Assembly (NCBI RefSeq): GCF_013265555.1
Contig: NZ_CP041345.1
Coordinates: 766,581-790,580, forward strand
Direction of reading: 5' to 3'
DNA from: Tenuifilum thalassicum
Lineage (GTDB): Bacteria > Bacteroidota > Bacteroidia > Bacteroidales > Tenuifilaceae
DNA: 24,000 nucleotides
Positions 2,150 to 19,429 of the stretch are shown here, one piece after another (position 1 is the first letter of the stretch; each line of letters begins with the position of its first letter). The notes under the pieces are model-generated. The model was given only the letters and a program-made list of their open reading frames with translations. It was not told the DNA's origin and did no database searches. Made by a program: the position numbers and the translations under genes.

Positions 2150-2530
2150 ATCGGACTCATCCCGATATTTCCGACTCATTCATCTAACTTCCTCTAACTT
2201 CCTTTAACTCCCTCATATTCCTAAACAAGAGAAGCCTTGACTACGCTCGGCATGACAAAAACTTCCAATTTCTTCCGATTATTTCCGAGTCATTCCGAGT
2301 CATTCTTTTAACTTCATCTAACTTCTTCTAACTCCCTTTAACTTCTTCTAACTCCTTCATATTCCTCAACAAGAGATGCTTCGGCAAGCTCAGCATGACA
2401 AAGGCTTCCGACTACTTCCGAATATTTCAGAATCATTCCGAATTATTCCTCTAACTTCCTCTAACTTCTTTTAACTTCCTCATATTCTTCAACCAGAAAT
2501 GCCTAGATTACGTTCGGCAAGACAAAGGCT
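2150..2530. repeat. Non-coding nested tandem repeat: 3 degenerate units (periods 143 and 124 nt) built from 10-nt and ~11-nt sub-repeats
   Basis: The anchor CATATTC(C/T) recurs at 2214, 2357 and 2481. Each unit carries 3, 5 and 3 copies of YYTAACTYCY, several TTCCGANTNATT copies, and a conserved tail ...AACAAGAGA(A/T)GC...GCATGACAAA. The third unit overlaps the last ~15 codons of the WYL gene. Confidence 0.75.
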
Positions 2531-3517
2531 TTCCTTAAGAGTATTCTGGAATTGTGCTCGAACATCTTCTGGTTCAAGAACCTCAATATCGGGACAAAAG
2601 TTTAGGAGAAGCGCAAAAAGCTCTTTATTAGGAATTACTTTAATACGAACCTCCAACTTATCGCCCACAAAACGGTGTTTTTGAGAGGGGTGTAATGGTT
2701 TTGTAATAACATATGGTGCCCTAGTTTTTGAGAAAAGCAGCTTAATTTCAACGGGTTCGGCATCGGCATAACGGGTCACGCCAACAATATCGTAAAAAAA
2801 CTCCTCCCAATCGGTTTCGGATTGAATATACTTAAGGGATGTCACCTCGATGCTAATAATTCTATCAAGAGCTAGATTCCAGTAAGGGTTATCCTCTTCC
2901 TGGTTGAATCCTAAAACAAACCACCTGTTATTGTACTCTTTTAGGTGGTATGGATGGTAGTGGAAGTATTTTGGTTCCTCGGCAAAATAGCGTTTATAAC
3001 CAATCCTAAGAACCTGCTGGTTAATAATGGCATTAAACAAAACGCCAAAATGCTCAAGTCCCTTCAAATCGCGATTAAAATCGAAGCTAACAACAGGATT
3101 GCCATTGCTTTGTAATCCGCCAAATTTATGTTGAAGCAGCGGTACAACCTCATACACCCAATCAAATTGAGGCATACCCTCAAATCGGGCTAAAACATCA
3201 ATGGCCGCCTTAATCTTTTCTATTTCTTCCTGTTTGATTGGAATATTATTTATGGAAAACTCCGGATTCGAATAGCGATAGAATTTTCTCCTGCCGTCTT
3301 GTATTCGTTCTATGTCGGCACTAAAACCCTCGCTGCTCTCCATGAAGTTTATATCATCTAGAACCTGTCTCTTGCTTACAGATTTAGAGGGATCAATATC
3401 TTGTAATACCTTATTAATCTCCTCAATTAAATCCTCAACGTAATACTTTCTGCCAGTATTCCTGAAGCATCGATCTAATACCTGATATCGAATTAAGGCA
3501 TTCTTGTTAATTGGCAT
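2489..3517 (-). CDS. WYL-domain transcriptional regulator (N-terminal HTH + WYL)
   Basis: The start MPINKNALIRYQVLDRCFRNTGRKYYVEDLIEEI is typical of Bacteroidetes HTH-WYL proteins. A WYL-like core is present (HLKEYNNRWFVLGFNQEEDNPYWNLALDRIISIEV). I prefer the ATG at 3517 over the track start at 3622, which would overlap the divergent gene at 3611. Confidence 0.8.
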   Translation of the reverse strand: MPINKNALIRYQVLDRCFRNTGRKYYVEDLIEEINKVLQDIDPSKSVSKRQVLDDINFMESSEGFSADIERIQDGRRKFYRYSNPEFSINNIPIKQEEIEKIKAAIDVLARFEGMPQFDWVYEVVPLLQHKFGGLQSNGNPVVSFDFNRDLKGLEHFGVLFNAIINQQVLRIGYKRYFAEEPKYFHYHPYHLKEYNNRWFVLGFNQEEDNPYWNLALDRIISIEVTSLKYIQSETDWEEFFYDIVGVTRYADAEPVEIKLLFSKTRAPYVITKPLHPSQKHRFVGDKLEVRIKVIPNKELFALLLNFCPDIEVLEPEDVRAQFQNTLKESLCLAERNLGISG

Positions 3518-3554
3518 AGCTGTATGAATTGATAAATATAAAGGTAATGAATTT

Positions 3555-3590
3555 TGCAGAAAGAGTGCACAGGTTGATATTTTCTTTGTA
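3555..3590 (+). promoter_or_regulatory. Operator/promoter module, degenerate copy (TGCAGAAAGAGTGCA-N8-TATTTTCTTTGTA)
   Basis: Same 15-8-13 nt architecture as the two near-identical copies at 4632-4667 and 15735-15770. It lies in the divergent WYL / paralog-1 intergenic region, 21 nt upstream of ATG 3611. Confidence 0.4.
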
Positions 3591-3610
3591 TCGTTCAGAT
3601 TCAAAATGCC

Positions 3611-4075
3611 ATGAGAAAGCAACTAATACTAATGGTTTTAATAATGGGCGCGGTAGGATGGGAAAGTCATGCTCAGATATTGTTGAACATTGACGAAATT
3701 ATTGAAAAATACGGACACCCTTTCGACAAAGAAAGTATTAACGACTCTATGTATTATATGGTTTATAGTTATGACCAGATTTATAATAAGCAAACCGATA
3801 TTATGCGCCTGAAAAGCGATTACGTAAAGCTGGGTATCATAAACAATCAAACAACCGAAATATGCATTGTGGTACTTCAGGAATACCCCTCTGCGTATTT
3901 ATATAAGGCTATAAATGTATTAAACAGCTATATGTATAAGCCAAAAAAAAACGACTTTATTTGGGTAAATCGTAAAAAGGGTACGGTAAAACGTATACTA
4001 TATGAAAAAGGGATGCAAACTTTTTATGTTGCAGAGTTATACTATGGTAATCACGTGATGGACATGTTGAAATAA
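3611..4075 (+). CDS. Small secreted protein, paralog 1 of 3 (unknown function)
   Basis: 154 aa with an N-terminal signal peptide (MRKQLILMVLIMGAVGWESHAQ). It shares the motif IDEIIEKYGHP and overall layout with the next two ORFs. Confidence 0.7.
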   Translation: MRKQLILMVLIMGAVGWESHAQILLNIDEIIEKYGHPFDKESINDSMYYMVYSYDQIYNKQTDIMRLKSDYVKLGIINNQTTEICIVVLQEYPSAYLYKAINVLNSYMYKPKKNDFIWVNRKKGTVKRILYEKGMQTFYVAELYYGNHVMDMLK

Positions 4076-4134
4076 TAAGAATTCAGGAAGGTAGAAAGGA
4101 TAAATTTTATTTAAATAAAACAACACCATAAACC

Positions 4135-4611: not shown

Positions 4612-4631
4612 AAATAATTTGTATCAAACTA

Positions 4632-4667: not shown

Positions 4668-4691
4668 ACGTAACAATTAAATCATGAAGCC

Positions 4692-5102
4692 ATGAATAAG
4701 ATACTGATAGCTTTGTTTGTACTGACATGGGCGCTTCCTGGCAAAACACAGCTAGGATATACCCTTGAGGAAATCATACAAAAGTATGGCGATAACTACT
4801 CCGTAGGATATAATTCCGATAGCTTATTCTATGCCATTTTTGAAAATGTGAAAGCAGGTCGTTCCGAAAAGAAAACTGTTATGATAACTTTATTCAATTC
4901 CGATAGAAAAGATGCCATTTGCATTGGCAAATTGATTGTTTATAGTCTTGATGAGATCAATGAAGCAGTCGACAAGTTTAATAAGAAATATGTTAAGAAA
5001 TCGGAGTTGGAGTGGAAGGACTACGAAAATGGTATTTTATACATTATTGATATTGACAGAAACAGAGGCTTATTTACAATAACAAGTTTAATCGATTTAT
5101 AG
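4692..5102 (+). CDS. Small secreted protein, paralog 3 of 3
   Basis: 136 aa with signal peptide MNKILIALFVLTWALPGKTQ and the motif LEEIIQKYGDNY. Confidence 0.7.
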   Translation: MNKILIALFVLTWALPGKTQLGYTLEEIIQKYGDNYSVGYNSDSLFYAIFENVKAGRSEKKTVMITLFNSDRKDAICIGKLIVYSLDEINEAVDKFNKKYVKKSELEWKDYENGILYIIDIDRNRGLFTITSLIDL

Positions 5103-5104
5103 CC

Positions 5105-5434
5105 ATGGGTGTATATGCAGTTAATTTGGATGAGGGCACCTTTACCCAGGACAAGGATACCTACAAGAATAGGTTAATGGACCCCCAATGGAAGACACGC
5201 AAGGAGGAAATACTAAAGCGCGATGGATATCGGTGTGTGGTTTGTGGTAGTACCGAAAACCTTGAGGTGCATCATAGGCAGTATCATTACCTGATTGCAG
5301 CAGGCCGTTACCGCGACCCTTGGGATTACGACGACCACATACTGATTACACTTTGCAAGGAATGCCACTCCGATGGACATACGCATTATAAAGTACCAGT
5401 AATATTTATTGATAAAACTAATAAAATTGTATAG
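5105..5434 (+). CDS. Small HNH (His-Me finger) nuclease-like protein
   Basis: 109 aa. The sequence RDGYRCVVCGSTENLEVHHRQYH...ITLCKECHSDGH gives CxxC...HH...CxxCH zinc/HNH spacing. The start is 2 nt after the preceding stop. Confidence 0.75.
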   Translation: MGVYAVNLDEGTFTQDKDTYKNRLMDPQWKTRKEEILKRDGYRCVVCGSTENLEVHHRQYHYLIAAGRYRDPWDYDDHILITLCKECHSDGHTHYKVPVIFIDKTNKIV

Positions 5435-5436
5435 CT

Positions 5437-6024
5437 ATGGCAATATTCAACCTATTTAGAAGAAAAATAAGCAACGAAGCAGCAAATAGCTCAACTGCGG
5501 CATCTGCCACCTCACCGGTTGCAACTAACCAACCACCAAGGGTTCCTAAAGAGATTTTCATTGAAGAAAATGGCCCAGAAAACAGGTCGTTAACTTTCAA
5601 ATCTAATGGGCAAAAGGTGGGAATTGATCTAATATACGACTACCTACAGGTGGACTTTGAACGTAAAGGCTATGAGGATGCCATCACCCATCCTGATGAA
5701 AGCTACAAAAACGACAATATCAATCTTTTAAAGATGGACCTGGCCATATTAGTTCAAAAAGTTGACAGCTACTACACCGAGCGGCTAAAGGAGCTCGATT
5801 TCCACATCGAATCGCGGAAACGTTCAGGACTGGTTGACCTGGTAATGGAGCTAAACTCGCAAAAAGAAGTTGTTCTAAGCCATATGGAAAGACTAAATGG
5901 CATTAAGAACGACATTGAGACTGGTAACGGAATAACCAAACGGGTTGAGCTATCGTATCAGCGTGGTTTTTCACGTGGTCTTTCGTCCATAACTAAATCA
6001 AAATTTATGAACCAAAAACTTTAG
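5437..6024 (+). CDS. Hypothetical protein (low-complexity N-terminus, predicted coiled-coil)
   Basis: 195-aa ORF starting 2 nt after the HNH stop. I recognise no family motif. Confidence 0.6.
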   Translation: MAIFNLFRRKISNEAANSSTAASATSPVATNQPPRVPKEIFIEENGPENRSLTFKSNGQKVGIDLIYDYLQVDFERKGYEDAITHPDESYKNDNINLLKMDLAILVQKVDSYYTERLKELDFHIESRKRSGLVDLVMELNSQKEVVLSHMERLNGIKNDIETGNGITKRVELSYQRGFSRGLSSITKSKFMNQKL

Positions 6025-6038
6025 CTATGTGTGTCGAT

Positions 6039-6117
6039 TGCAGGGGGCTCCAAACTATTTGGATAGTTTGAGAAATGAAAAGTGTGTATTGTTAAAACTT
6101 GTTCCCCCTGCATTTTT
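6039..6117 (+). terminator. Long structured terminator-like element
   Basis: TGCAGGGGG (6039-6047) pairs with CCCCCTGCA (6104-6112) and is followed by T5. An inner hairpin CAAACTA/TAGTTTG is present. It lies directly after the 195-aa gene. Confidence 0.4.
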
Positions 6118-6159
6118 AAATTATTAAACTATTCACATTAACTTTAATATTATTGTAAA

Positions 6160-7116
6160 ATGAGAGATCTTTGGCTAAAAACAAGCTGCTTTTTCACTGG
6201 ATTCAACTACCAAATAGTAAAAAACTCGAGTGAGGCTGCTGCTAAAATGGTAAAAAAGAACATGTCGGCGCTAATCATTATCAGCATACTTTGGGCATTT
6301 ATTGGATTTAACTTTACTTCGCGCTACTTGCATGGCAATACGCTAACCTCGCTTATTGTAGCATTGGTAATGGTTGTTGTAGTTATTCAAATTGAAAGGC
6401 AGATACTGTTAAATGTAACAAACTCAAAAGGTGCAATTACTTTTCGAACTATTATTGGTGTAATCATGGCCTTTATTGGTTCAATAATTATTGACCAAAT
6501 CATTTTCAAGGACGATATAGAGCAAGGCCAGATGGCAACAGTACAGCAAAGGGTTAACCGGATTTTACCCATGAAGACTACCGAGCTGAAAGAGCAAATA
6601 GCTCAGATAGCCAATGCAATAGAAAGCAAAGAGGCGGAAAGAAATCAGATATTAGTGGAACTGGGCAAGAATCCTACCATCAGCACCCCAACCTCCGTTG
6701 GCAAATACGAAAAGGATAGTACCGGCAAAATGGTTATGGTTGGCCGGGAGGTAACCTACCAGTCGGTACCTAACCCTAAAGCTAGCTTGATCCCCCAGAT
6801 TGATGACCAGCTCGCTCAGCTAAGAACCGATTTGGCAAAAAAGGAGGAGTTGCTGCTAAACATTCGCAGCGAGATTGAAAAGGAGATGCAATCAAAAACA
6901 GGTTTCCTCGACGAGCTAACCGCTCTTTATAAAATTGCTACCTCCTCTTTTGTATCAATTTTTGTTTGGATGCTATTTTTCCTCTTTTTCGCATCAATGG
7001 AGCTGTTCATATTGGTAAATAAAATTAGCGATAACCATACCGATTACGAGGATATTATAATGCACCAAATGAGGGTCAGAATGAAGCAGCTTGAGAAGCT
7101 ATCGGAAACTGTTTAA
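6160..7116 (+). CDS. DUF4407-like membrane protein (N-terminal TM helices, central coiled-coil, C-terminal TM)
   Basis: 318 aa. The start LWLKTSCFFTGFNYQIVKNSSEAAAKM is followed by hydrophobic helices, a long charged coiled-coil and a C-terminal hydrophobic segment (FVSIFVWMLFFLFFASMELFILV). This matches my recollection of the DUF4407 layout; no HMM was run. Confidence 0.55.
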   Translation: MRDLWLKTSCFFTGFNYQIVKNSSEAAAKMVKKNMSALIIISILWAFIGFNFTSRYLHGNTLTSLIVALVMVVVVIQIERQILLNVTNSKGAITFRTIIGVIMAFIGSIIIDQIIFKDDIEQGQMATVQQRVNRILPMKTTELKEQIAQIANAIESKEAERNQILVELGKNPTISTPTSVGKYEKDSTGKMVMVGREVTYQSVPNPKASLIPQIDDQLAQLRTDLAKKEELLLNIRSEIEKEMQSKTGFLDELTALYKIATSSFVSIFVWMLFFLFFASMELFILVNKISDNHTDYEDIIMHQMRVRMKQLEKLSETV

Positions 7117-7121: not shown

Positions 7122-7147
7122 TTGCGCAAGGCCTAGGCCTTGCGCAA
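7122..7147. terminator. Bidirectional terminator between convergent genes
   Basis: Perfect 26-nt palindrome TTGCGCAAGGCCTAGGCCTTGCGCAA between the + gene ending at 7116 and the - operon ending at 7297. Confidence 0.6.
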
Positions 7148-7296
7148 CTCTGTATACTTTTCTTTCCCCAATAAGCTTATCCAATTAGTTTATATCATTT
7201 CGATTTCTGTTTGATTGAAAGTTGTAATTTTATTGTATCTAAAAACTTTTTTATTACCAAACTTTTATGTTTGTGGATTATGGGTTATCAAATTTA

Positions 7297-8808
7297 TTAA
7301 ATTACTTTTATTGCTTTCCATCCTAAAGTTTTTTTCTTTTTGTTATAGGATAAAATAGCCATACCCTTTAACAGTTGTCCATCATTTAGATTATTTTTTT
7401 TAATAATTATTGGTTCAACAAAGATGTTTTCAATGAAACCAAAGTTTTGTGATGGGTTTATTTTAAGTTTTCCTTCAAAACTCTTTAATGCATCACATGG
7501 TATATCAGCGTCAACTTTTTTTGCTGACAGAATGTTATAATATCCATCCCTGCCATTTCCATTAAAACGAACCTTTAAAAGGTCCCCAATTTGAGGATTG
7601 GAAATGTAATCTGAATACCTAAAAAAACCATATTTGTTTTTATCCTTCACAAAATTCAGTATTTTCTTGTTTTCATTTACAAACTCGACTACAACCAATT
7701 CTTCAGGTACATCCTGAAACAATATTTCCTCTGCTTTCTTGATGTGAATTGAATACAAATCTTGGTTGTCATTTTTAGCTGAGGCAGATTTATACCACTC
7801 TTGTTCTGTCCATTGCGCTATTTGGTTCGGCAGCTTCCATTCGTGTTTCTCTCTTGCTTCTATAATTTTCTGGATTTCCGTTTTTGCTTCATTGTACATT
7901 TGCTTTTCTATGAGCAATTCGGCAAATGTTTGACGAAGTTTAACCAAAAAGTCTTCAGGCGTTTTCAGACTCAATGCTTTGCAGTAGCAAGCAAATTTGA
8001 TATTTTTGTCATAAGAGAAAATTTCTGCCATCAGTTCCCAAACCCAAAATTCATTTCTTTTTTGTTTCGCAAAAGGCAAAAATGCGGACAAAACATTTTC
8101 ATCGCTACCTAATGATAATAGGAGTTTTGCTTTGAAATATGGGGGATATTGATACTCTGGATGTTTTTCTATCAAAGAATCAAGTTTGGGCAAAAATGAT
8201 TGAATCTTTTCCTTATCAATCACTCTTTCTTGTCCAAAAGGATCCAGGGGTTCCCCCTCTAAAAGTTTCTTTGAGTAGGCGATATACGCCTGTTCAGCAA
8301 TAGACATTATTTTTTTTCTATTGTATTCTTCTTTTAAATAGTCTTCGGAGCGAAGGTTATTTAAATCCCACCAGTCAGCAAACTCTAAATACTTTGACCA
8401 GTTTTGATAGCCTTTGTGAAAAGCTTTATAAATAAATGAATATGCTTCTGATGGCTTGGAGAAATGAAAGTCTCTGATAATTTCAAACAACTCATTGATT
8501 TTGTCATAATCAACATGCTCTGTTTTCTGTAATGCAAAAACCAAACTGCCGATTTGCCATGCACAATTGTCAAACACCATTTTTTCATCTTCCGGCAATT
8601 GCAAATTTTTTAGCTTAATGAGATTATCCTTGAAGACCTCATACGAATCCGGTTGAGCATTTTTTTTGAGATAGTCATAATACACCCATGCAGCTGCCCG
8701 CTTGTTCCAGATGTTTTCGGGTTCTGCTTCCAAAGCTTGATTTGCCATTTGCAAAGCTTCATCAAGCTTTCCCGCTTGTCGTAGTTCTTTGATTTCTCTA
8801 AATGACAT
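7297..8808 (-). CDS. TPR-like repeat protein with two C-terminal cold-shock/S1-like OB-fold modules
   Basis: 503 aa. The N-terminus has helical TPR-like repeats (GKLDEALQMANQALEAEPENIWNKRAAAWVYYDY...). The C-terminus reads ...NKYGFFRYSDYISNPQIGDLLKVRFNGNGRDGYYNILSAKKV and ...FEGKLKINPSQNFGFIENIFVEPIIIKKNNLNDGQLLKGMAILSYNKKKKTLGWKAIKV, which follows the CSD pattern G..k...GFGFI...diFV....l..Gq.v. Its start overlaps the helicase stop by 11 nt. Confidence 0.7.
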   Translation of the reverse strand: MSFREIKELRQAGKLDEALQMANQALEAEPENIWNKRAAAWVYYDYLKKNAQPDSYEVFKDNLIKLKNLQLPEDEKMVFDNCAWQIGSLVFALQKTEHVDYDKINELFEIIRDFHFSKPSEAYSFIYKAFHKGYQNWSKYLEFADWWDLNNLRSEDYLKEEYNRKKIMSIAEQAYIAYSKKLLEGEPLDPFGQERVIDKEKIQSFLPKLDSLIEKHPEYQYPPYFKAKLLLSLGSDENVLSAFLPFAKQKRNEFWVWELMAEIFSYDKNIKFACYCKALSLKTPEDFLVKLRQTFAELLIEKQMYNEAKTEIQKIIEAREKHEWKLPNQIAQWTEQEWYKSASAKNDNQDLYSIHIKKAEEILFQDVPEELVVVEFVNENKKILNFVKDKNKYGFFRYSDYISNPQIGDLLKVRFNGNGRDGYYNILSAKKVDADIPCDALKSFEGKLKINPSQNFGFIENIFVEPIIIKKNNLNDGQLLKGMAILSYNKKKKTLGWKAIKVI

Positions 8809-11005
8809 AGTCAGCTTCTTTTAGGTGGTTTACAATAGATTTGATTTTAGCAAGAAGTTCGGGTGAGTTACATTTCTTTTCTAGTGGAAGCACGCGCCCA
8901 AAAAAACCTGCCTTATCGTATTCAAAGTCAATTACGCAAGACTGTTCATGGTTTTTTATAGTATACCTTTCACGGTATTCGAGATGCTGAATGTTGGAAA
9001 TGACTTCACCGTTTGATAAACCTCGGCTAATAAAATCGAAAAGATTTTTCAAGAATGGCTTTTCTTCTTCAATTGCTATATCAAATTCTATTTGTGTTAA
9101 AATACCCTCGGCATTATTTCTATTTACTAAAATCGGAGTAGCACATTCTAATATTTTGGCGATGGTTTCAAATAATTCATCAGAGTTGGTTTGTGCAGGA
9201 AGCTTTTGAAAATTATTATTAAAAACATTCTGCCCATTAACCCAGTATTTGAAACCCGCTGTTTGTGATTCTCTTTTGAAGATATATCGTACTTCATACC
9301 CAACTTTCTGCCAAAATTTAATATTAATATTTTGCTTTCGCAAATAATACCATCTGTGAATGAAATGGTCTTGAATTGTTATTGGTTCATTTTCTAAACC
9401 AAATTTTTCAAGTTCGGGCAAAACTTCTTTAATATTTATTTCAGTATTAATATTTGTTTGTCCAGTTAAGTCATTATATGCTTGTTGAATTTTTGTATCA
9501 ACAAAACTCATCTCAGAAAAAGAAGAGAAGTATGGTGGATTAATACAGAATAACCTTTTAGAAGCACGTGTTACTGCCGTGTAGGCCCAACGGAAAAATT
9601 CAGGATTTGTCTTTCCAGTTCTATTATGTGGCGATTCATAAAAGTTAAACTTATTGTTGATCCCTTTATCCCAAAAAACAAAAGCATTTGGCCATTCACC
9701 GCCCTGGGCTTTGTGACAGGTTACGGCATAGCCATATTTTAAAAGAATGCAATTGAAATACTCATCTTTGATGATGGCTTCTTTAAATTCTTCAGTACCT
9801 TTTTTGAGGTTGGGGTGCCTTTTTTTGAAATCTACGTAAAGGGCTATTTGTTCATCAGGTGTTAAAGTATTTTCACCGTATAAGTAGTTCTCTAAGATAA
9901 ATCCGTTTATGGTTTTGGGCTGATTTTTTTCATCGGGTAAAATAAGGCCAATTTTTCTCCATGTTAATTTTACGCTTATAGTTTTACCACCTTTTGTGTA
10001 AAAACTTACATCTCTGCTTACAACCGAAGGACTTACTTCTGAAACAATAGCAAACTCACCATTCATGATACCAAGGTAGTAATTGTTTGCGCCAATAACA
10101 ACAGTATCAGATGGTTGTATTGGCAAATCATCCCCAAACTTATCTTTACGGATAACTCGGTTCAAATTAAGAGCTGTTTTGTTTTTATGGCAAATGATTA
10201 TTTTAGGTTCTTGTTGCACATTATAAGTCTCCAAAAATTCCTGATAGGAAGGATTAAAAATATCCTTCTTATTTTCTCTCAAATCAAAGTCATTGAAGTA
10301 GCCCGATGTAAGACACCGTCTTATTTTAGTGGCAGCAATCAAGATGCCATTATTGACCTCTTGACGTTTAACCTCCTTCATTTCCGCTTGAGATACAGAA
10401 ACCTTGTAGGTCTCGCTAATATAATTTGGATCAAGTGCAGGAGAGAAGTTCATTCCAATGGGAGGCAACTGAGATGGGTCTCCTATAAAAATAATTTTGT
10501 TGTTTGTTTCGCATTCTTGAATCCTACTGTAGGAAATAAGATCTCGCAACAAATGACCGCTGCCAAAGCGGAAAAACTCTCCTTGGCTCAAAATATCACT
10601 GACCATTGACGCTTCATCTATTATCAGAACCGAATCATGAACCTCCGGGTTGTTCCTGATTTTATATTGATATAAAAACGAAACATCATTTTCGTTTTCA
10701 CCTTGCTTTATTTCCTGCAACTCTTCAAAGCTGTATATGCCTTTGTGAATGGTGGTAGATTCAAAGCCTGTTTTTTGTTTGATGACTCTTGCTGCTCTGC
10801 CGGTCGGAGCCATTAATTGGTACCTTTTCTCTAAAGATTTAAGATATTCAACCAAGCCTTTGAGTAGGGTTGTTTTACCACTTCCCGCATATCCCTGAAG
10901 GATAAATATTCGCTCATCACTTTCTAAAAAAGCATGAAGCTTTTCCAACGCATTGCGTTGGTCGTTGGTGAGGTTGATATGTTGGAAATGGTTGAAGATT
11001 TTCAT
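8798..11005 (-). CDS. SF1B RecD/Dda-like DNA helicase with ~230-aa C-terminal extension
   Basis: 735 aa. Motifs seen: Walker A GYAGSGKTT, Ia APTGRAA, Walker B IIDEASMV, III IFIGDPSQLPPIG, V TCHKAQGGEW and VI YTAVTRA. There is an ATGA start/stop overlap with the upstream gene. Confidence 0.85.
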   Translation of the reverse strand: MKIFNHFQHINLTNDQRNALEKLHAFLESDERIFILQGYAGSGKTTLLKGLVEYLKSLEKRYQLMAPTGRAARVIKQKTGFESTTIHKGIYSFEELQEIKQGENENDVSFLYQYKIRNNPEVHDSVLIIDEASMVSDILSQGEFFRFGSGHLLRDLISYSRIQECETNNKIIFIGDPSQLPPIGMNFSPALDPNYISETYKVSVSQAEMKEVKRQEVNNGILIAATKIRRCLTSGYFNDFDLRENKKDIFNPSYQEFLETYNVQQEPKIIICHKNKTALNLNRVIRKDKFGDDLPIQPSDTVVIGANNYYLGIMNGEFAIVSEVSPSVVSRDVSFYTKGGKTISVKLTWRKIGLILPDEKNQPKTINGFILENYLYGENTLTPDEQIALYVDFKKRHPNLKKGTEEFKEAIIKDEYFNCILLKYGYAVTCHKAQGGEWPNAFVFWDKGINNKFNFYESPHNRTGKTNPEFFRWAYTAVTRASKRLFCINPPYFSSFSEMSFVDTKIQQAYNDLTGQTNINTEINIKEVLPELEKFGLENEPITIQDHFIHRWYYLRKQNINIKFWQKVGYEVRYIFKRESQTAGFKYWVNGQNVFNNNFQKLPAQTNSDELFETIAKILECATPILVNRNNAEGILTQIEFDIAIEEEKPFLKNLFDFISRGLSNGEVISNIQHLEYRERYTIKNHEQSCVIDFEYDKAGFFGRVLPLEKKCNSPELLAKIKSIVNHLKEADYVI

Positions 11006-12702
11006 GCAAGCAACTTTTGTATGATTTGTGAAACTTGTTCTAATAATATTTTATATCCTTCATAAAAATAAATCTTGTCGCATTCCGTTTTTAAGTTATC
11101 AGTAAGCTTTTTTTCAGAGGGATGAATAAACTCGTTCCTCCTTTTTATAGAATAATAAAGTTGCTGTACATCTTCATCTTTATATTCCAAAAGTTGAAAA
11201 CATAGCCCGGCTACTTTTTCGAATGTTGTGGGTAAATTGTTTTTGAAGTTTGGTGTGTTAGTAAATGTGTATTTATTTTTTTCTTCATCCCATCTATACT
11301 GTTTGAGTTCTTGAGGTCCTTTAATACACCATTTGTTTTCATCATTTTTAAACACGTATTCACCAGCAATTAGTTCTAAACACTTAAATAAGGATATATA
11401 TGCATAGGCAAAATCATCTTTGGAATTTGCTTTTTCATACATATTGTATGAAAGTTGTAAAATCTTAATAAGCTCTTTACCAATGTGCTTATCGAATTTT
11501 TTATTTTTTATGGCTGTTGTTAAAGATTTCGATAATTGATTTATCGATTGGTTTACAGGCTTTAAATAACTTGCCCGGTTAATAGAACCTTCAACAACCT
11601 GTTTAAGGTTCTTAATATCCTCGGCTACATTAGAATCATCTCTTTTAATAATATATCCGTTAGCACCAAGCCCTTGAACCGACTGGTAATTCCAAATCTT
11701 ATTTGAAGCAGTAGTTATAATTACTTGAATTCCCTTGTTGATTTTTTTTATTTCCTCTAATATCTTGTAACCTGTTAGCTCTTTAGGTTCTTTATTTTCT
11801 TTAAAATCTGAATCGCAAAGCCGTAAATCAAGCAGCACTACATCAGCATCTTCGCATTTCTTTATTGCACGATCAATTATTTCATTTTGACTTAAAGATT
11901 TGAACTCTACTTCCAATATATCAAATTTAATTGTATTATTATTAATGTTATTTTGTAAAAAACACCTGTAAAAATCACCCCAGCCTCTTTTGGCTTCATC
12001 GTCTATTAATAAAACTTTTCCTTTACCGTTTATTAAATATGGGGTACCTTGTTTAGTCTCTGCAACAGGATTTAGTGCTTGATAGTATTTAAAATACAGT
12101 CCCTTTTGTAAATTTTCCTTTACTTCAAGGATATTGTTATCACATTTTAAATAGGTGGACCACCTAAGTAATGCAAGCTCATTATCTATGCTATGATGAG
12201 ATTGATAATTGGCAGGAGGAGATAATTGCAGTCTCTTCAAACATTTTTCCCATTCCGTTTCAGAGATTCGGGGTTTATGCTCTTGAATCAAAATATATTC
12301 ATTTTTCAGTGCATCTCTATCTGTTTTTGCAATATGGAACACTCCAGGTGTAAATAGGATATTTCCTAATTCAGAAAGTTTAGCAATTTGATTCGGTGTT
12401 TCAATACCTATAAAGACTATTGGAACAAGATGATGTCTGAATTCTTTTGTTACCCTGATGTGAGCTGCTACTCTTAAACCGGTTAATTCAAAATAGTTTT
12501 GTTGCGAAAGCGTATAAGGGATAAATATTACATCATAAGCTTTATTCTGAAATGCTTTCGACAAAGAATCATGTAAAAATCTATCCAGTACAAAATTTGA
12601 ATTTTGTGAGGCTTGAGAATAGTCTATAGCGGATTTGTCTCCATGAAAATGATCAGTTAAACTTGTTGGTAAATTATCTCCATGGAATAAGATTGCTTTC
12701 AT
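11002..12702 (-). CDS. Pseudo-receiver + canonical receiver (REC) domain protein with C-terminal helical HEPN-like domain
   Basis: 566 aa. The canonical REC is KVLLIDDE...DVVLLDLRL...IQVIITTAS...ANGYIIK, with the D-D, D, T and K residues all present. The N-terminal ~140 aa is receiver-like without the acidic residues. The C-terminal helical region contains KRRNEFIHPS, i.e. R522-N-x3-H527 (nt 11122-11139), followed by one long terminal helix. Confidence 0.7.
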   Translation of the reverse strand: MKAILFHGDNLPTSLTDHFHGDKSAIDYSQASQNSNFVLDRFLHDSLSKAFQNKAYDVIFIPYTLSQQNYFELTGLRVAAHIRVTKEFRHHLVPIVFIGIETPNQIAKLSELGNILFTPGVFHIAKTDRDALKNEYILIQEHKPRISETEWEKCLKRLQLSPPANYQSHHSIDNELALLRWSTYLKCDNNILEVKENLQKGLYFKYYQALNPVAETKQGTPYLINGKGKVLLIDDEAKRGWGDFYRCFLQNNINNNTIKFDILEVEFKSLSQNEIIDRAIKKCEDADVVLLDLRLCDSDFKENKEPKELTGYKILEEIKKINKGIQVIITTASNKIWNYQSVQGLGANGYIIKRDDSNVAEDIKNLKQVVEGSINRASYLKPVNQSINQLSKSLTTAIKNKKFDKHIGKELIKILQLSYNMYEKANSKDDFAYAYISLFKCLELIAGEYVFKNDENKWCIKGPQELKQYRWDEEKNKYTFTNTPNFKNNLPTTFEKVAGLCFQLLEYKDEDVQQLYYSIKRRNEFIHPSEKKLTDNLKTECDKIYFYEGYKILLEQVSQIIQKLLA

Positions 12703-12807
12703 ATTTTAGCTATGATTTTATTTATTTCTTGGTTAAGTTCTTCAATTGTTTTTGAGCCAATAATGGATTCCAAACTTTCCTTAATTGGTTCTATAGCACG
12801 TGTTAAA

Positions 12808-13191
12808 TTATCCTGTAACAAAAGTTTGCCTGTATGTCATCATTATATTTAATTTCCAATTATCTCCATAGATGAGTTCTGAAATGTGTTCTATTTTATC
12901 TTCCACGTACCTGCGCAAAAATTCAGGTAAAGTATTGTTGTAAAAATCTTTTGAGTTGAGTAGGAAATACGGATATGGTTCAAAGTAGAAAAGTGACTGC
13001 CCAACACCTCCACTAAAAAAGACTAATGGCTTTCTCTTACTCTTACAATGTGAAATTACTGTGTTTATTCCACCATTAGATAAAGATGAACGATGGATAA
13101 TAATTAAGTCATAATCATTCAAAGAGGCAAATTCTTTCTTGTTGAGTTCATCGATCAATTTTCTACATTCTTCATGAAGGCATATAAACAT
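12808..13191 (-). CDS. Receiver-like (flavodoxin-fold-like) hypothetical protein; probably the central fragment of a frameshifted ~194-codon gene
   Basis: 127-aa ORF (DYDLIIIHRSSL...KPLVFFSGGVG pattern). Open fragments in the +1 shifted frames flank it at 13172-13282 and 12699-12836. Both fragments are ATGA-coupled to the neighbouring genes (see findings). Confidence 0.55.
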   Translation of the reverse strand: MFICLHEECRKLIDELNKKEFASLNDYDLIIIHRSSLSNGGINTVISHCKSKRKPLVFFSGGVGQSLFYFEPYPYFLLNSKDFYNNTLPEFLRRYVEDKIEHISELIYGDNWKLNIMMTYRQTFVTG

Positions 13192-13278
13192 TTTCTATAC
13201 TATTAATTTTCTCAATACGTTCTTTATTAAGATACTGTTCTTGCCTTCCTGGACGGTCTTCTAATAAAAGTACTTTTT

Positions 13279-15456
13279 TCATGGTAAATAGAATTTTAAT
13301 ATGTAGGTAAAGCCTTTAACTATGCAATCTTCCTTTTTTATTTCGGCAATATGGAATTGGCTGTTTTCATGAGATATTTTAACATTAGGGTATAAATATT
13401 TTAACACAAAATCACCATCAGTAAAATGAGCTGCCACTTCAAAATCACAAATACTTATGAGGGGTTTAATTACCTCTTCCAAATCACCACTAGGCTTCAT
13501 GAATTTAGAGTGCTCTGAATTTTTAAGAGGGTGTGAGCCTATGTGAATTATTTTTAATAAAATCAAATTCTGGTTAGATAATCGATTACATGAAATCTCA
13601 ACTTCACGGTTTTCTGTTCTTGTTTGTATCATTCGGAAAATCCGTCTTATGGCTTTTAATACAGGCACGGTGTAAACTGTAAACGACTCATACTTTAGAG
13701 TTTCAAGACCACTCACCTTGAATTCTCTTAATTCCTGCAATACAAGATTATTTATTTCATAATAAAAATCTCTTGTTTCTTCTCTAAATGCAATTTCTCT
13801 TTTAAACAGATTAATAATATCTCCAAAGAATCTAATTTCCTTGCCATACATTAACCTATATTTTTGATTGGCTTCTGCCGATACTAAATCATCAGAAATA
13901 GACATTTCAAAAGGTGTCTTTTTTAAAGCATGTGGTTTATTGTCATAATTTTCCACTATCCAATTAATAACACTATCTGGGTATTGCCAACCGATTTTTA
14001 TACCATATTTTCCCCATTTAAATGGAATTTCCTTCCCTTCTTTATTTGTTGATATTTTTTTTTGAAATACAAATGGGTAAATTACATTCCACCAAAGATT
14101 GGCATTATATTTCTGAAGAAAGACAAACTCTTCATATCGTGAATTAACAGCTTTAAAATAATTTTCTGTAGATGAATTACTTTCGGAATTGATATCGGGA
14201 GAAGTATCCCAAAAATGTGTAAGCCATTTCATAATTGGATCTGAAGTAAACTGCTCAAGTTTATTGATGACTAATTTTGGGTCGTGAAATATTGCTTTTT
14301 TATCTTCTGACAGCACATTAAGGTGTTCTTGGGTTCTGTTTTGTTCTATTATCTCATTATTTTCAATAGGATTTTCAGATTTAGTCAATCTATCAAACCT
14401 CTTCTTCAGCCCTTGATAGGTTGAATCCTTGAATCCCTTCACCATCTTCAGGAATTCCAATTTCCCGTCCAACACATTCACCAAATGTGCATTCATGTTT
14501 TTCACATGCCCTTTATCGGCAATGTAATCCCGTTTAAAAATCTGTTCCGCTTTTTCATAGCCATACTTTTCCCAATAGTACAGCCACATACGGATTTGCT
14601 TTATATACCTCCTGTGGACATTTACCTTTTCGTTTACAATCAATCCTGTTGCTTCCTGGCGATAACCCGCTTTTTGTAAACGTGTTTTATTAGGGTTGAT
14701 GACAAGTTTTTGATCTTCTTCAATAATTCGCTTTAGCTCCTTGATAAAATCATCATCTTTATAAATATTGTGAAGTGAAGAAAAGGTTATGTCATCTGCA
14801 TATCTAGTATATGTCGCACCAAATCGCTTGGCAAGTCCGGTTAGTCTGCGATCAAGTTTTTTGCAAAGAATATTTGTTAAAGTTGGCGATGTAGGGCTAC
14901 CCTGAGGAAGTACTGTTTTTATTTCTCCATCTACTTCTAATGGATGAGTGCAAAGACATGCTAATAGAAAAGCCAAAGATTCTTTGTCTCCTTTTAGGTT
15001 AAATGGCTCATACATAAAACCTATCTTCACCCTATTTCGGTCAAATGAATGAAAAAAATCTTTTAAATCAATATTATAGACATAATTTTGCCCTAAATGT
15101 TTTTTTGCATTATCGACAATTGATTTATTCAAAACAAATCCTGTAGCGGCTTTATGCGGTTCATAAATACACTGCAGTACAAAATTGAGAACCCGAAGAA
15201 TAGACTTTAACCCACTTACTGGTGAATGAATTATCCTGTCTTCACCAGACTTTTTCTTTATGGTAAAAGTCTGATAACGTTTTTTACACAGGTCAGGATT
15301 CGCATAATAAGTCAAGGACTTTTTTTGAAAAGGCATGCTATTTTCACCATAAAGCATTTTTTTTGCATTGTTAAGCAACTTCAATAAATCGTCTTTGCTT
15401 TGCATTTCTGCAAATTGCTTTCTTAATTGCTCTATGTGAACTTTATCTACTTTCAT
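13279..15456 (-). CDS. Retron-type reverse transcriptase with ~350-aa uncharacterised C-terminal extension
   Basis: 725 aa. RT motifs seen: KKKSGEDRIIHSP, NAKKH (retron NAxxH), NIDLKDFFHS, LPQGSPTSPTLTN, YADD (nt 14791-14802), NPNKTR, and RQEATGLIVNEKVNV (position of the retron VTG motif). I see no maturase/endonuclease or DGR-type motifs. Confidence 0.9.
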   Translation of the reverse strand: MKVDKVHIEQLRKQFAEMQSKDDLLKLLNNAKKMLYGENSMPFQKKSLTYYANPDLCKKRYQTFTIKKKSGEDRIIHSPVSGLKSILRVLNFVLQCIYEPHKAATGFVLNKSIVDNAKKHLGQNYVYNIDLKDFFHSFDRNRVKIGFMYEPFNLKGDKESLAFLLACLCTHPLEVDGEIKTVLPQGSPTSPTLTNILCKKLDRRLTGLAKRFGATYTRYADDITFSSLHNIYKDDDFIKELKRIIEEDQKLVINPNKTRLQKAGYRQEATGLIVNEKVNVHRRYIKQIRMWLYYWEKYGYEKAEQIFKRDYIADKGHVKNMNAHLVNVLDGKLEFLKMVKGFKDSTYQGLKKRFDRLTKSENPIENNEIIEQNRTQEHLNVLSEDKKAIFHDPKLVINKLEQFTSDPIMKWLTHFWDTSPDINSESNSSTENYFKAVNSRYEEFVFLQKYNANLWWNVIYPFVFQKKISTNKEGKEIPFKWGKYGIKIGWQYPDSVINWIVENYDNKPHALKKTPFEMSISDDLVSAEANQKYRLMYGKEIRFFGDIINLFKREIAFREETRDFYYEINNLVLQELREFKVSGLETLKYESFTVYTVPVLKAIRRIFRMIQTRTENREVEISCNRLSNQNLILLKIIHIGSHPLKNSEHSKFMKPSGDLEEVIKPLISICDFEVAAHFTDGDFVLKYLYPNVKISHENSQFHIAEIKKEDCIVKGFTYILKFYLP

Positions 15457-15474
15457 ATCAAATTATTTGAAAGA

Positions 15475-15728
15475 CTTTGAAACACCTGCCCTGATACTCT
15501 ATAAGTATTAAAGACCAAAAAAAAAAAATTTAATTAGGGGTTATTCTTAGTCAGCGTTATTACTGGCGTCAATGTAAATCTCAGTTCTGAAGTTATGCTC
15601 AGAAACTGTGCTCATTAATGCCACTCTGACATTCATTCCAACAAAAGTTGGAATAAGATGCCGATCATTGCCTAAACAAATTTAGGCCAGCACCCACAAA
15701 TCAATATCTTTAGGCAAGTGTTTCAAAG
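15475..15728 (-). ncRNA. Candidate retron-like msr/msd ncRNA (structured RT-associated RNA)
   Basis: A 16-bp long-range inverted repeat with one G-U pair closes the region: minus-strand CUUUGAAACACUUGCC (15728-15713) pairs with GGCAGGUGUUUCAAAG (15490-15475). Internal hairpins lie at 15670-15687, 15635-15654 and 15582-15608. A promoter-like module sits directly upstream, and the RT ATG is 19 nt downstream. Confidence 0.55.
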
Positions 15729-15734
15729 AACTTC

Positions 15735-15770
15735 TGCAAAGTTGGGGATTATTTGTGCAGCCTTTCTGCA
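15735..15770 (-). promoter_or_regulatory. Operator/promoter module TGCAGAAAGGCTGCA-N8-CCCCAACTTTGCA driving the ncRNA/RT operon
   Basis: Minus-strand sequence is identical in both boxes and in spacing to the copy at 4632-4667. The -7-like AACTTTG places a predicted start within a few nt of the a1 arm (15728). Confidence 0.6.
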
Positions 15771-16097
15771 CTATAAAAATATATTTTAATTATTTTTTTA
15801 CAAAATCTACTTATTATGTAAAGTAATTAAATATAAATTTTCCTTGTCAAATTTATCGCCTCAATTTTCTCCCATTGAAATACGTCTAATAGTTCAGGTT
15901 GGTTCATGAATGCGCTTGGTTCAAGGTTCTAAACTTTAAGGTAAAAAATATTTTAGAATCGTAAACTTAAAGTGCATACTAAGTTGATTATCAATAGATG
16001 TAAAAATTGATAATGAGGTTGATGAAATAAATACTTACCACTATTCACAGTTTCAAAATTTTCTTTGATATTCCCTATATATCCGTTCTTTCTACTA

Positions 16098-16203
16098 ATC
16101 GACCCCTCCCAACCTCCCCTCTCAGGGGAGGCTTTTTTTCATGGATAGAAATTGCGTTATTTTTCCCCTCTCCTCACAGGAGAGGGGAAAGGGGTGAGGT
16201 CGC
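16098..16203. repeat. REP-like GC-rich hairpin element (copy 1)
   Basis: Hairpin CCTCCCCT-CTC-AGGGGAGG plus T7 lies at 16113-16139. Hairpin CCCCTCTCC-TCACA-GGAGAGGGG followed by AAAGGGGTGAGGTCG lies at 16165-16203. The second part recurs at 23469-23510. Confidence 0.6.
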
Positions 16204-16348
16204 CAAAACCTGCCCCACAGTCAAAAAAACTTCCGGTTCATTCCGCCTTTTCCCATCCCGTAAACAAATATTAACAAAACTATTTTGGTTTTAAAAGTTT
16301 TCTATCCGAATTTTGTACACAGAAAACTATTTAAGTTTAAAAAGTTTT

Positions 16349-16975
16349 ATGAGCGTAAAAGAGCAAGTTCTCGAGGGTGCGTTGGAGCTATTCAAGAAAA
16401 TGGGTATACGTGCCGTTACAATGGATATGCTGGCCGTGCATTTGGGCATGTCAAAGCGAACCATCTACGAGAACTTTAAAAACAAGGACGAGATTGTTGA
16501 GGCTTGTGTGCGCATTGAGAATGAGAAAATGAAAGCAATGGCACAGGAGATTCTTCAAAGGAGCGAGCATTACATCGAAACCTATATCATGTTTATGTGG
16601 GCCCATATCAATAGGCTTCGAGGTGTAAACCCGCTTTTCATGCACGACCTAAAAAGGATTTATCCCAAAACAATTAGCAGGCAGGCAGGTGAGTTCGACC
16701 ATTATATGCGCGATAAAATGGTTGAATTCATTGAGAAGGGGAAAAAGGATAAGCTCTTTAGGGCGGAGGTAAACCCTCAGATTGTGGCAAATGTGGTATT
16801 TGAATTCTCAAAGCTGCTTCGAAATCGATTTGAAACCGGGAACAATACCCTTAGCAGCTTTCCGTTGGCCGAGGTGTTTGAGCACATGGCAATCAACTTT
16901 ATTCGGGGGCTATCAACCGTTAAGGGAATTGAGCGCGTTGAGTATTACTACAATAAACATAAGTCGTCGATATAA
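16349..16975 (+). CDS. TetR/AcrR family transcriptional regulator
   Basis: The HTH is MGIRAVTMDMLAVHLGMSKRTIYENFKNKDEIV. I prefer ATG 16349 (MSVKEQVLEGALELF...) over the track start at 16313. It heads the TolC-MFP-RND operon. Confidence 0.85.
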   Translation: MSVKEQVLEGALELFKKMGIRAVTMDMLAVHLGMSKRTIYENFKNKDEIVEACVRIENEKMKAMAQEILQRSEHYIETYIMFMWAHINRLRGVNPLFMHDLKRIYPKTISRQAGEFDHYMRDKMVEFIEKGKKDKLFRAEVNPQIVANVVFEFSKLLRNRFETGNNTLSSFPLAEVFEHMAINFIRGLSTVKGIERVEYYYNKHKSSI

Positions 16976-16995
16976 GAAACTAAAACATAACAGGT

Positions 16996-18321
16996 ATGCA
17001 CAGATTATTGCTTTTATTTACTGTTACGGGTGGTATCTTCCTTACGGGGAGTAGGGGATACGCCCAACCCGATACCCTGCGATTATCGGTTGCGCAGGCT
17101 GTTGACCTTGCCGTTCAGCAAAACCTAATGCAAAAGGTTTCAGAGCTTGAGCTACAAAAGAAACAGGAAAAGGTTAAGGAGTACATGGCGGCTCTTTACC
17201 CTACCATTAAGGCCTCGGGTAGCTATACCCGTAACCTTAAGCTCCCTGTTATCTTTATGCCGGCAGGCTCACCTTTTGGTCCTACACTAACTATCGGCTC
17301 CGATAATAGCTACTCGGCTTCGGTTAGCGCTTCGATGCCTCTGTTCGTTTACAACATTTTTGAATCGATAAAGTTAGGGCAAAAGGATGTGGCGATTAGC
17401 CAGGAGAAGCTTCGCGAGAGCAAAATCGACCTCGCTGCTAATATTAAGAAAACCTACTACAACATCCTACTTCTTAAGAATAGCCTAAACGTAATAAACC
17501 AAAGCTATAAAAATGCTCTTGCCAACCTGGAGAATATCAAAAAGCTTAATGAGAGGGGGATGGTTTCCGATTACGACCTGATCCGAATTAAAGTTCAGGT
17601 CGATAATTTATATCCCAACGTTCTACAAGCCGAGAATACCTATAAAAATCTTTTAAATGTACTTAAGGTCCTATTGAACATTGATGTTGAAACTCCTGTT
17701 GTTTTAAACGAGGATGAAATAGGCGAGTATAGTTTCACAAACCTAGTTCTACCTGATAGTAGCTGGGTGAATAATAACACCAGCCTCCGACAGCTCTCAT
17801 TAACTAGCGAGATGCTTAAAATTCAGGAGAAGATGGCAAAGGGTGCAAATTACCCTTCGCTGGTTGCTATAGGAAACTACCAGTATCAAACACAAGCAAA
17901 TGATTTTAAATTTGGCGATTACCGATGGGTTCCTACATCAATGGTTGGACTACAGCTAAACATTCCTATTTTTTCGGGATTTTCGGTACGCCGACAGCTA
18001 AACCAGGTAAGAATTAGCCAAAAACAAATCGAACTACAAAAGGAGTTTACTTTAAACAACCTTACCGCTCAGGTACACAATGCAATTAATGCTGTTAATA
18101 CGGCTGCTAGTAAGGTAATTGCTGCCCAAAGCAATATTGAAATGGCTCAAAAAGGTTACGATATTGCTAAAACAAGGTATAATACGGGACAATCCACTTT
18201 GCTTGAGCTAAACGATGCTGAAAATGCTTTGCTTCAAGCTCGATTAAACCTAATTCAGGCCCAAATGGAATACCTGATTGCTAAAATCGATTACGAGAAG
18301 ATTGTTGGTGAAGTGATATAG
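16996..18321 (+). CDS. TolC-family outer membrane efflux protein
   Basis: 441 aa with a signal peptide and two OEP-type repeats (e.g. YDIAKTRYNTGQSTLLELNDAENALLQARLNLIQAQ). Confidence 0.9.
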   Translation: MHRLLLLFTVTGGIFLTGSRGYAQPDTLRLSVAQAVDLAVQQNLMQKVSELELQKKQEKVKEYMAALYPTIKASGSYTRNLKLPVIFMPAGSPFGPTLTIGSDNSYSASVSASMPLFVYNIFESIKLGQKDVAISQEKLRESKIDLAANIKKTYYNILLLKNSLNVINQSYKNALANLENIKKLNERGMVSDYDLIRIKVQVDNLYPNVLQAENTYKNLLNVLKVLLNIDVETPVVLNEDEIGEYSFTNLVLPDSSWVNNNTSLRQLSLTSEMLKIQEKMAKGANYPSLVAIGNYQYQTQANDFKFGDYRWVPTSMVGLQLNIPIFSGFSVRRQLNQVRISQKQIELQKEFTLNNLTAQVHNAINAVNTAASKVIAAQSNIEMAQKGYDIAKTRYNTGQSTLLELNDAENALLQARLNLIQAQMEYLIAKIDYEKIVGEVI

Positions 18322-18366
18322 AATGAACAGGAATAGCTGAGTAAAATCGTAAAACTTTATAAACCA

Positions 18367-19416: not shown

Positions 19417-19429
19417 AAGGTTTTAGAAG

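Follow-up and report, generated by a model that had tools for sequence, protein, structure and literature searches.

TOTE (TPR, OB, TBP, Effector) systems are conflict systems whose description is credited to Aravind, Iyer & Burroughs 2022 by a 2025 preprint (PMC12458937). The PADLOC database also carries candidate systems (PDC) that are defined by their recurrent embedding in known defence loci; one of them, PDC-M16, is outside those tested in the corresponding work (PMC12881386). Retrons are divided into 13 types, and histidine kinase, TPR or helicase partners are not mentioned among them (Mestre et al. 2020). The present work concerns an operon on the minus strand of a 24,000-nt stretch of Tenuifilum thalassicum DNA (hereafter the window, whose positions are used as coordinates throughout). 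The system is composed of a predicted WYL-type repressor with a TGCA-N7-TGCA operator, a non-coding RNA (ncRNA), a reverse transcriptase (RT) fused to a kinase-family domain, the small product of gene 2, a protein with iREC, receiver (REC) and HEPN-like domains, a helicase with TBP domains, and a TPR protein with two S1/cold-shock OB folds. On balance, and with modest confidence, we regard the locus as a member of the TOTE family (PADLOC candidate PDC-M16), a variant organized around a retron-type RT that would work as the RT–relay–HEPN system proposed below. The operon is probably an anti-phage system, and an earlier reading of the same sequence (the first-pass annotation) was reasonable in interpreting it as a 'retron-like defence system'.

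The TOTE family is recognized through the last two genes of the operon. The open reading frame (ORF) 4 (8798..11005, minus strand, 735 aa) codes for an SF1B (RecD/Pif1-like) helicase with Pfam matches to AAA_30, AAA_19, UvrD_C_2 and PIF1, followed by two C-terminal TBP-TOTE domains (PF22721, 1.2e-36, in two stretches); its match to NCBIfam RecD2, at 110 bits, is under the cut-off. ORF5 (7297..8808, minus strand, 503 aa) codes for a protein with TPR_19, DUF7017, S1CSD-TOTE-1 (2.4e-24) and S1CSD-TOTE-2 (9.4e-24) domains. Both are recognized by PADLOC, ORF4 by PDC-M16A (PDLC04475; E = 0, 1034 bits, aa 1-726 of 735) and ORF5 by PDC-M16B (PDLC04477; 1.7e-249, aa 1-502 of 503), and the two genes overlap by 11 nt. 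In the operon as a whole, the Pfam families matched are PF22561, PF22563, PF00072, PF22721, PF22860, PF22708 and PF22707. The first-pass annotation correctly recognized an SF1B helicase in ORF4 and a TPR protein with two OB folds in ORF5, and overlooked the two TBP-like domains of the helicase. Its description of the system as 'undescribed' is not supported, because Pfam curates parts of it under the TOTE name (TBP-TOTE, S1CSD-TOTE-1/2), with further matches to HisKin-conflict, iREC and DUF7017, and PADLOC holds the core pair as the candidate PDC-M16A/B.

The first gene, ORF1 (13279..15456, minus strand, 725 aa), encodes a fusion of an RT (aa ~1-385) and a PF22561 HisKin-conflict domain (aa 390-723), as assigned with Pfam, PADLOC and a PDB profile search. 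The Pfam matches are RVT_1 (1.9e-18) and, over the full model length, HisKin-conflict (E = 1.6e-84). This kinase-family domain constitutes the C-terminal 335 aa of what had been annotated as 'RT' and had escaped attention. The RT motifs previously listed (NAKKH, QGSPTSP, YADD and ATGLIVN) are present, with the majority of their residues invariant: among the 27 RT-kinase homologues aligned, there is no variation in YADD, NAxxH, H414 or P393, and the conservation of H391 is at least 90%. The best PADLOC models for ORF1 are those of retron RT-Protease_XI, RT-TIR_XII and RT-Toprim_I-C (E 1e-98 to 1e-85). Searched against the PDB, the profile of the 27 homologues finds Ec67 first (170 bits), then Ec86 (135) and Ec78 (107); the RT falls outside the group II RTs, which score 40 bits, and Drt2 scores 28. 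Since PADLOC and the PDB profile place the RT with retrons, its assignment to the diversity-generating retroelements is unlikely. All NCBIfam retron scores are below the cut-offs (Retron_TIR, 268 versus 600; Ec67 family, 227 versus 450; St85, 184 versus 235) and no histidine-kinase, TPR or helicase partners are described by Mestre et al. 2020; by these comparisons the RT therefore belongs to the retron clade and is outside every named type. The earlier impression that no named retron or defence-associated RT (DRT) subtype combines these parts is borne out in that none of the 13 types (Mestre et al. 2020) fits. A group II intron or DRT2 identity of the RT was also considered and rejected (TIGR04416, 58 bits versus a cut-off of 300; Drt2, 43 versus 390).

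The RT gene is preceded by a retron-like ncRNA of ~255 nt (15475..15731, minus strand), characterized by its fold, an inverted repeat, covariation and conservation. The 'structured leader' noticed earlier is confirmed (z = -6.4; 0/200 shuffles fold as well). The inverted repeat 15475-15490 / 15713-15728 is 94% complementary, and over the 300 nt that precede the RT more than 50 loci have a DNA identity of 70-86%. This conservation is concentrated in two leader blocks (15740-15627 and 15511-15451) separated by a variable, A+T-rich middle part. The elements of the ncRNA, all read on the minus strand, are the a1 arm (15731-15713); P1b, formed by GAUAU (15708-15704) and GUAUC (15497-15493); P2 (15695-15688 with 15663-15656); stem-loop 1 (15687-15670); stem-loop 2 (15654-15635); a variable msd-like part (~15625-15512) that includes a T12 run (15528-15517); and the a2 arm (15490-15475).

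A covariation model was built with 41 pairs, corresponding to a1/a2, the 5-bp extension GAUAU/GUAUC, helix P2 and the two stem-loops. Paired cells make up 92% in this model; their share is 84% after column shuffling and 38-50% after sliding of the partners. Double-sided changes affect 26 pairs (173 cells) versus 16 pairs (43 cells) in shuffles, and 0/500 shuffles reach the observed values; compensatory changes are found in 10 of the 16 a1/a2 pairs. On this comparative evidence, the leader has the layout of a retron RNA, with a closing a1/a2 helix, msr-like hairpins and a variable msd-like part, ending ~20 nt before the RT start, and the earlier notion of a retron-type RT beside a structured ncRNA is supported. 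A candidate for the branching G is position 15702, where an unpaired G with at least 90% conservation immediately follows the closing helix. A scan of the whole window with Rfam 15 finds no family at the gathering thresholds, and a permissive run over the leader gives chance-level matches alone. In many other loci, the variable part of the RNA contains several TATTGAT-like repeats, echoing the conserved GATATTGA of the 5' part.

The protein encoded by ORF3 (11002..12702, minus strand, 566 aa) is composed of an iREC domain (aa 11-124), a helical linker, a receiver (D234, D235, D292, K353) and a HEPN-like domain (aa ~376-566; R522, N523, H527, E443). In Pfam it matches PF22563 iREC (2e-36) and Response_reg (5.6e-07, exactly at the 30.2-bit cut-off). 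In 29 ORF3 homologues, D235, D292, K353, E443, R522 and H527 are invariant, and D234 and N523 are nearly so. The receiver thus keeps the acidic pocket, the phospho-acceptor Asp and the Lys, and appears active from its residues. In the AlphaFold2 model, the predicted local distance difference test score is 90 for the whole of ORF3 and 95.9 for residues 376-566, and the (beta-alpha)5 pattern is seen in residues 228-352. The top of the Foldseek list against the PDB consists mostly of HEPN proteins (Csm6 5yjc, AF_0298 2hsb and HEPN-MNT toxins), none with E < 1e-3, and a few ORF3 homologues have weak Pfam matches to Csm6-HEPN (6e-4) and RiboL-PSP-HEPN (1.4e-4). The C-terminal domain of ORF3 is probably HEPN-like. 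The receiver domains and the HEPN-like RNase motif (an invariant RNxxxH) were correctly recognized in the first-pass annotation.

Receivers commonly dimerize when phosphorylated, HEPN RNases form their active site through dimerization, and the TBP-like domain of RNase HIII binds RNA–DNA hybrids. We propose a mechanism in which the RT would use the variable ncRNA region as template for an RNA–DNA product of retron type. The conserved core (RT/ncRNA, helicase-TBP and TPR-CSD, the last named for its cold-shock domains) would hold or survey this nucleic acid and act as the sensor, the TBP-like domains binding duplex or hybrid and the OB folds binding single strands. If infection disturbed this complex, the RT-attached kinase would autophosphorylate on a conserved His (candidates H414 and H391) and the phosphate would pass to D292 of the receiver. 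The phosphorylated receiver would then dimerize, assembling a composite HEPN active site, and the resulting RNA cleavage would arrest the infected cell (abortive infection). The WYL repressor would provide an extra transcriptional control. The three-part logic suggested previously, with RT/ncRNA as sensor, the helicase and CSD protein as handlers and the REC-HEPN protein as effector, lacked the kinase, the obvious link from the RT to the receiver-HEPN protein.

To study the distribution of the system, the RT half was used to search the GTDB species-representative genomes, which at the reach of this search (close relatives only) yielded 60 loci; look-ups added seven (loci are referred to below by L numbers). 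They are mostly from Flavobacteriales, Bacteroidales, Chitinophagales/Saprospiraceae, Cytophagales and Ignavibacteria. The gene order around RT homologues, which the first-pass annotation had put forward as a check, is conserved when judged on the 38 non-redundant loci that extend at least 9 kb past the RT start: the helicase is present in 36 of them and the TPR-CSD gene in 35, always collinear and on one strand. Five loci with RTs 65-80% identical (L021, L064, L019, L049 and L030) carry the labels of an archaeon, Methanofastidiosum, Bacillota or Caldisericota metagenome-assembled genomes; mis-binning appears more likely than cross-domain spread, since these loci have Bacteroidota-like sequence.

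The receiver module is found in 28 of the 38 long loci. The other 10 have a minimal form, consisting of a standalone RT of ~400 aa, one protein of 260-335 aa, and then the helicase-TBP and TPR-CSD genes (this form was found in L008, L009, L012, L015, L017, L024, L026, L032, L047, L063 and L066). The middle protein of the minimal form has an invariant R-N-x(2-3)-H-R (R246, N247, H250, R251) and a conserved Q.E helix, and no Pfam family matches it. Its homology to the ORF3 C-terminus was examined by profile–profile comparison and is not claimed (E = 0.009, probability 4%). One of the minimal loci, L026, also carries a gene for a YhcG/DUF1016 PD-(D/E)xK nuclease. There is thus a simpler form of the system that has the RN..H motif on a free-standing protein and no kinase/receiver relay, and the relay therefore seems to be an extra layer of control. 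The RT, helicase and TPR-CSD proteins are ~60-85% identical across orders (RT half, 62-84%; TPR-CSD, 72-81% among the matches listed), versus 25-73% for the kinase half; judged by these identities, the system is made of a conserved core and a fast-evolving relay/effector part. In Elizabethkingia miricola (L003), the kinase is a separate gene adjoining the receiver protein. The neighbours of the system include BREX genes, which flank L007, a restriction–modification pair in L005, and a recombinase and MobC in L003. In L001 (14396-18412), the RT-kinase/gene 2/iREC-REC-HEPN module is followed on the opposite strand by genes for a YprA-like helicase (DEAD, Helicase_C, WHD_HRQ1, MZB) and an RNase H-fold protein, which replace the SF1B-TBP/TPR-CSD pair in an arrangement reminiscent of TALON/ARMADA.

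An operator/promoter module (15735..15770, minus strand) is located directly before the RNA. It consists of the palindrome TGCAGAAAGGCTGCA (15770-15756), then CCCCAACTTTGCA with the -7 box CAACTTTG. The promoter-like module proposed for this interval is supported: it can be equated with a TGCA-N7-TGCA palindrome and a TAnnTTTG-like box, each of them kept at a constant distance from the RNA in ~43 homologous loci. The palindrome lies 24-26 nt upstream of the first RNA arm in ~43 homologous loci, and the leader alignment gives the consensus TAnnTTTGCA directly upstream of the RNA, where the window reads CAACTTTGCA. We take the TAnnTTTG box to be the Bacteroidetes -7 box. A sigma-70 promoter scan gave 55 matches versus 40 expected and is uninformative for a Bacteroidota genome; cross-locus conservation was therefore used for the promoter.

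The window contains three copies of the palindrome, of the form TGCAGAAAG(A/G)(G/C)TGCA, at 3555-3569 (in the promoter region of a WYL gene), at 4632-4646 (in a plus-strand cassette) and at 15756-15770 (ahead of the RNA). Common to the second and third copies is a 40-nt module, TGCAGAAAGGCTGCA-N10-CCCCAACTTTGCA, which recurs at 4632-4671; a variant of it is found at 3555-3590. The WYL gene (2489..3622, minus strand) codes for a WYL-WCX regulator (Pfam WYL and WCX) that is 51-53% identical to the regulators by which the RT is immediately preceded in most of the homologous loci; it had been overlooked as a component of the system. A WYL homologue was found by tblastn beside the RT in 47 loci, usually in divergent orientation. 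In the window the gene is situated 3.7 kb past the 3' end of the operon, behind the 3.5-kb plus-strand cassette; a WYL homologue is likewise downstream of the system in L047 and L049. The promoter-like module probably includes the WYL operator, to which the WYL protein is predicted to bind, and this protein may regulate the RT operon in trans. The three operator copies, together with the WYL gene, suggest that the RT operon and the plus-strand cassette form one regulon.

Gene 2 (12699..13282, minus strand; ~195 aa, no known family) is located between ORF1 and ORF3 and contains two +1 frameshifts, being either a pseudogene or affected by sequencing errors. Its 584 nt are distributed over three frames (13282-13172, 36 aa; 13191-12808, 127 aa; 12821-12699, 40 aa). 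Intact homologues of 194-216 aa are present in the same position in nine other loci, and in tblastn comparisons the window gene maps onto frames 1, 2 and 3 in turn, which indicates two 1-nt insertions, one of a T within CCTTCA (13180-13175) and one of an A within CAAAC (12828-12824). The disruption was not noticed in the first-pass annotation, where the product was called 'REC-like'; this label is unproven, hhalign comparisons with REC, iREC and the linker giving nothing significant. There is no Pfam family for gene 2 or its homologues. All the overlaps described previously are present, both those of ATGA (13279-13282, 12699-12702 and 11002-11005) and the one of 11 nt (8798-8808), and the picture of five chained ORFs holds for the four intact genes and fails for gene 2.

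Several observations weigh against the interpretation that we favour and have to be considered together with its alternatives. The HEPN-like domain found no match when searched by profile against the PDB; given this result, the Foldseek E-values that are not below 1e-3 and the weak Pfam matches, the HEPN assignment is statistically insecure. The kinase half of ORF1 has no match to any solved kinase in the PDB profile search, the classic boxes for ATP binding (N, G1 and G2) are not apparent among the 27 aligned homologues, and its presumed kinase nature rests on Pfam family curation. These features would also suit a degenerate GHKL-like or structural domain, with the ORF3 receiver controlled by a ligand, a protein contact or a cellular kinase, as would the fast divergence of this half (25-73% identity) and the presence in the same system of an 'inactive' receiver domain (iREC). 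We nevertheless find such an explanation unlikely, as the end-to-end PF22561 match (1.6e-84) is to a family curated as a histidine kinase, H414 is invariant, and the domain co-occurs with a receiver that keeps a complete phospho-acceptor pocket, beside which it is encoded by a separate gene in L003. A doubt of another kind concerns the product of the RT, which might be another complementary DNA, of the sort made by DRT/UG systems, and not a 2'-5' branched multicopy single-stranded DNA (msDNA); the conserved RNA would then be scaffold and template, and the helicase and OB-fold protein would process the product. The branching role of G 15702 is putative, and G 15708, in the position analogous to the branching G of Ec86, is not invariant, being A or C in a Flavobacteriaceae subclade. 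The TATTGAT-like repeats of many variable regions and the T12 run of the window are atypical of msd hairpins, and an SF1B helicase is not known from any characterized retron. This possibility too seems improbable to us, the RT being far nearer to retron RTs than to Drt2 (170 versus 28 bits) and the RNA being closed by the defining a1/a2 helix immediately before the RT and having a conserved unpaired G (15702) just beyond this helix.

Other reservations concern the T. thalassicum copy and the function of the family. Gene 2 is disrupted in T. thalassicum, and since it is twice frameshifted this copy may be impaired. That the family is real and the copy in the window decaying or inactive, with gene 2 a pseudogene, the regulator apart and the promoter box weakened, is a serious possibility, to which we give somewhat less than even weight. 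Two independent 1-nt insertions in a 584-nt gene, versus ~7 kb of intact neighbour genes, point in this direction, as do the position of the WYL gene away from the RT and the -7 box, which is CAACTTTG instead of TAnnTTTG and deviates from the consensus at its first base. On the other side, both insertions are in short runs of identical bases (TT, AAA) and could be sequencing errors, the other genes retain all invariant catalytic residues, the operator is kept in three copies, and the downstream location of the WYL homologue recurs in L047 and L049. It is, finally, quite improbable that the operon is not anti-phage and serves a mobile element (competition, addiction or transfer control) or a stress response. 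Recombinase and mobilization genes adjoin some loci (L003), WYL regulators also control DNA-damage regulons, there is no experimental test of any TOTE/PDC-M16 member in the searchable literature, and no relative was found in viral contigs. Against this, as far as is known every characterized retron acts in defence, the effector is toxin-like, the system adjoins BREX and restriction–modification genes, and the PADLOC candidate owes its definition to its embedding in defence loci (PMC12881386).

The region surrounding this presumed defence operon has a distinct composition. The G+C content is 0.30-0.38 from ~3 kb to ~16 kb, a stretch that contains the operon, versus 0.40-0.46 in the flanks, so the stretch looks acquired. 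The perfect palindromic terminator reported at 7122-7147 is real: it is a bidirectional, terminator-like hairpin without assigned strand, situated between convergent operons, with 11 bp (7 G-C), a 4-nt loop and a T-rich tail, and on the operon strand 7147-7122 is followed by ACTTTTTAAA. The plus-strand cassette (3611-7116) separates the WYL gene from the end of the RT operon and has five genes (154, 158, 136, 195 and 318 aa). The last one is DUF4407, the other four have no Pfam family, and PADLOC gives zero matches for the five proteins; the cassette may be a second conflict module of an unfamiliar kind. The pair formed by the 195-aa and DUF4407 genes is also found near the RT in L061 (6055-7652). 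The RT promoter is separated from a TetR gene by 540 nt, in which, near the upper edge of the low-G+C stretch, there are two G+C-rich hairpins, CCTCCCCTCTCAGGGGAGG and CCCCTCTCCTGTGAGGAGAGGGG (16113-16131 / 16165-16187), resembling repetitive extragenic palindromic elements or terminators. The low-G+C stretch is flanked by an ordinary efflux operon (16313-22579, plus strand). The Pfam run covered its TetR regulator and HlyD-type membrane-fusion protein; the identities of its outer-membrane factor and 1049-aa transporter were read off the translations.

Retrons serve genome editing and their defence mechanisms are actively studied. If the proposed scheme is true, two-component signalling would operate within an anti-phage system, and the sensing of msDNA perturbation would become directly accessible to study. 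The family occurs widely among Bacteroidota, the conservation of its core proteins is unusually high (70-85% identity), and its RNA can now be modelled. In current annotation, the names 'reverse transcriptase family protein', 'response regulator transcription factor' and 'DUF7017 protein' conceal one coherent system. What is already known of it is the TOTE-named parts, curated in Pfam, and the core pair, held as a PADLOC candidate; it is not a named retron type and is not in Rfam. If the 2022 TOTE description left out the RNA or the relay logic, these would be new.

Comparison with the described systems shows what is shared and what is particular to the window. With TOTE it shares a TPR protein with two S1/CSD OB folds, a TBP protein and a candidate effector gene in one operon, and the TOTE-named Pfam matches are of 1e-24 to 1e-36; here the TBP domains are fused to an SF1B helicase. 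As regards the linked effector of TOTE, the RN..H residues of ORF3 are invariant or nearly so, and its HEPN matches (Foldseek, Pfam) are weak. The PADLOC PDC-M16 models cover the two-gene core only, to which the window operon adds the RT, the ncRNA and the kinase-receiver module.

To our knowledge, every solved retron couples msDNA directly to a toxin. We put forward, tentatively and as something rather less likely than its opposite, that the system is a retron type beyond the 13-type scheme, in which the RT–msDNA state would be reported by a His-Asp phosphorelay and not by direct toxin release, with a helicase-TBP/TPR-OB core, its own ncRNA family and a WYL operator. The closest retrons are those of clade 8 with C-terminally fused RTs (I-C Ec67 RT-Toprim, XI RT-protease and XII RT-TIR; Mestre et al. 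2020), which provide the best RT matches and likewise have a C-terminal fusion, an upstream a1/a2 ncRNA and accessory effector genes. They differ in that the RT of the window is fused to a histidine-kinase-family domain and not to an effector, the effector being a separate receiver-HEPN-like protein, and in that systems of the window type are accompanied by the helicase-TBP and TPR-CSD pair. Type IX retrons (RT and HEPN), Csm6/Csx1 and HEPN-MNT toxins resemble the locus in the RN...H motif on a helical bundle and in an effector beside the RT; type IX retrons differ in that their RT is of clade 7 (Mestre et al. 2020), and the HEPN-like domain of the window is fused to receivers, with a weak fold match.

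TALON (YprA helicase, NERD nuclease, TPR-CSD and TBP; PMC12458937) has TPR-CSD and TBP components in common with the window, which has an SF1B helicase and no YprA/NERD protein; TALON is described without an RT. In L001, the RT-kinase/receiver-HEPN module has as its neighbours a YprA-like helicase carrying MZB and a gene of the RNase H fold. BrxR-BREX and CapW-CBASS are defence operons under WYL regulation. The homologous loci resemble them in having a divergent WYL-WCX regulator and a palindromic operator over the promoter; the window differs in that its regulator is apart from the RT operon and that three operator copies appear to tie together two transcription units.

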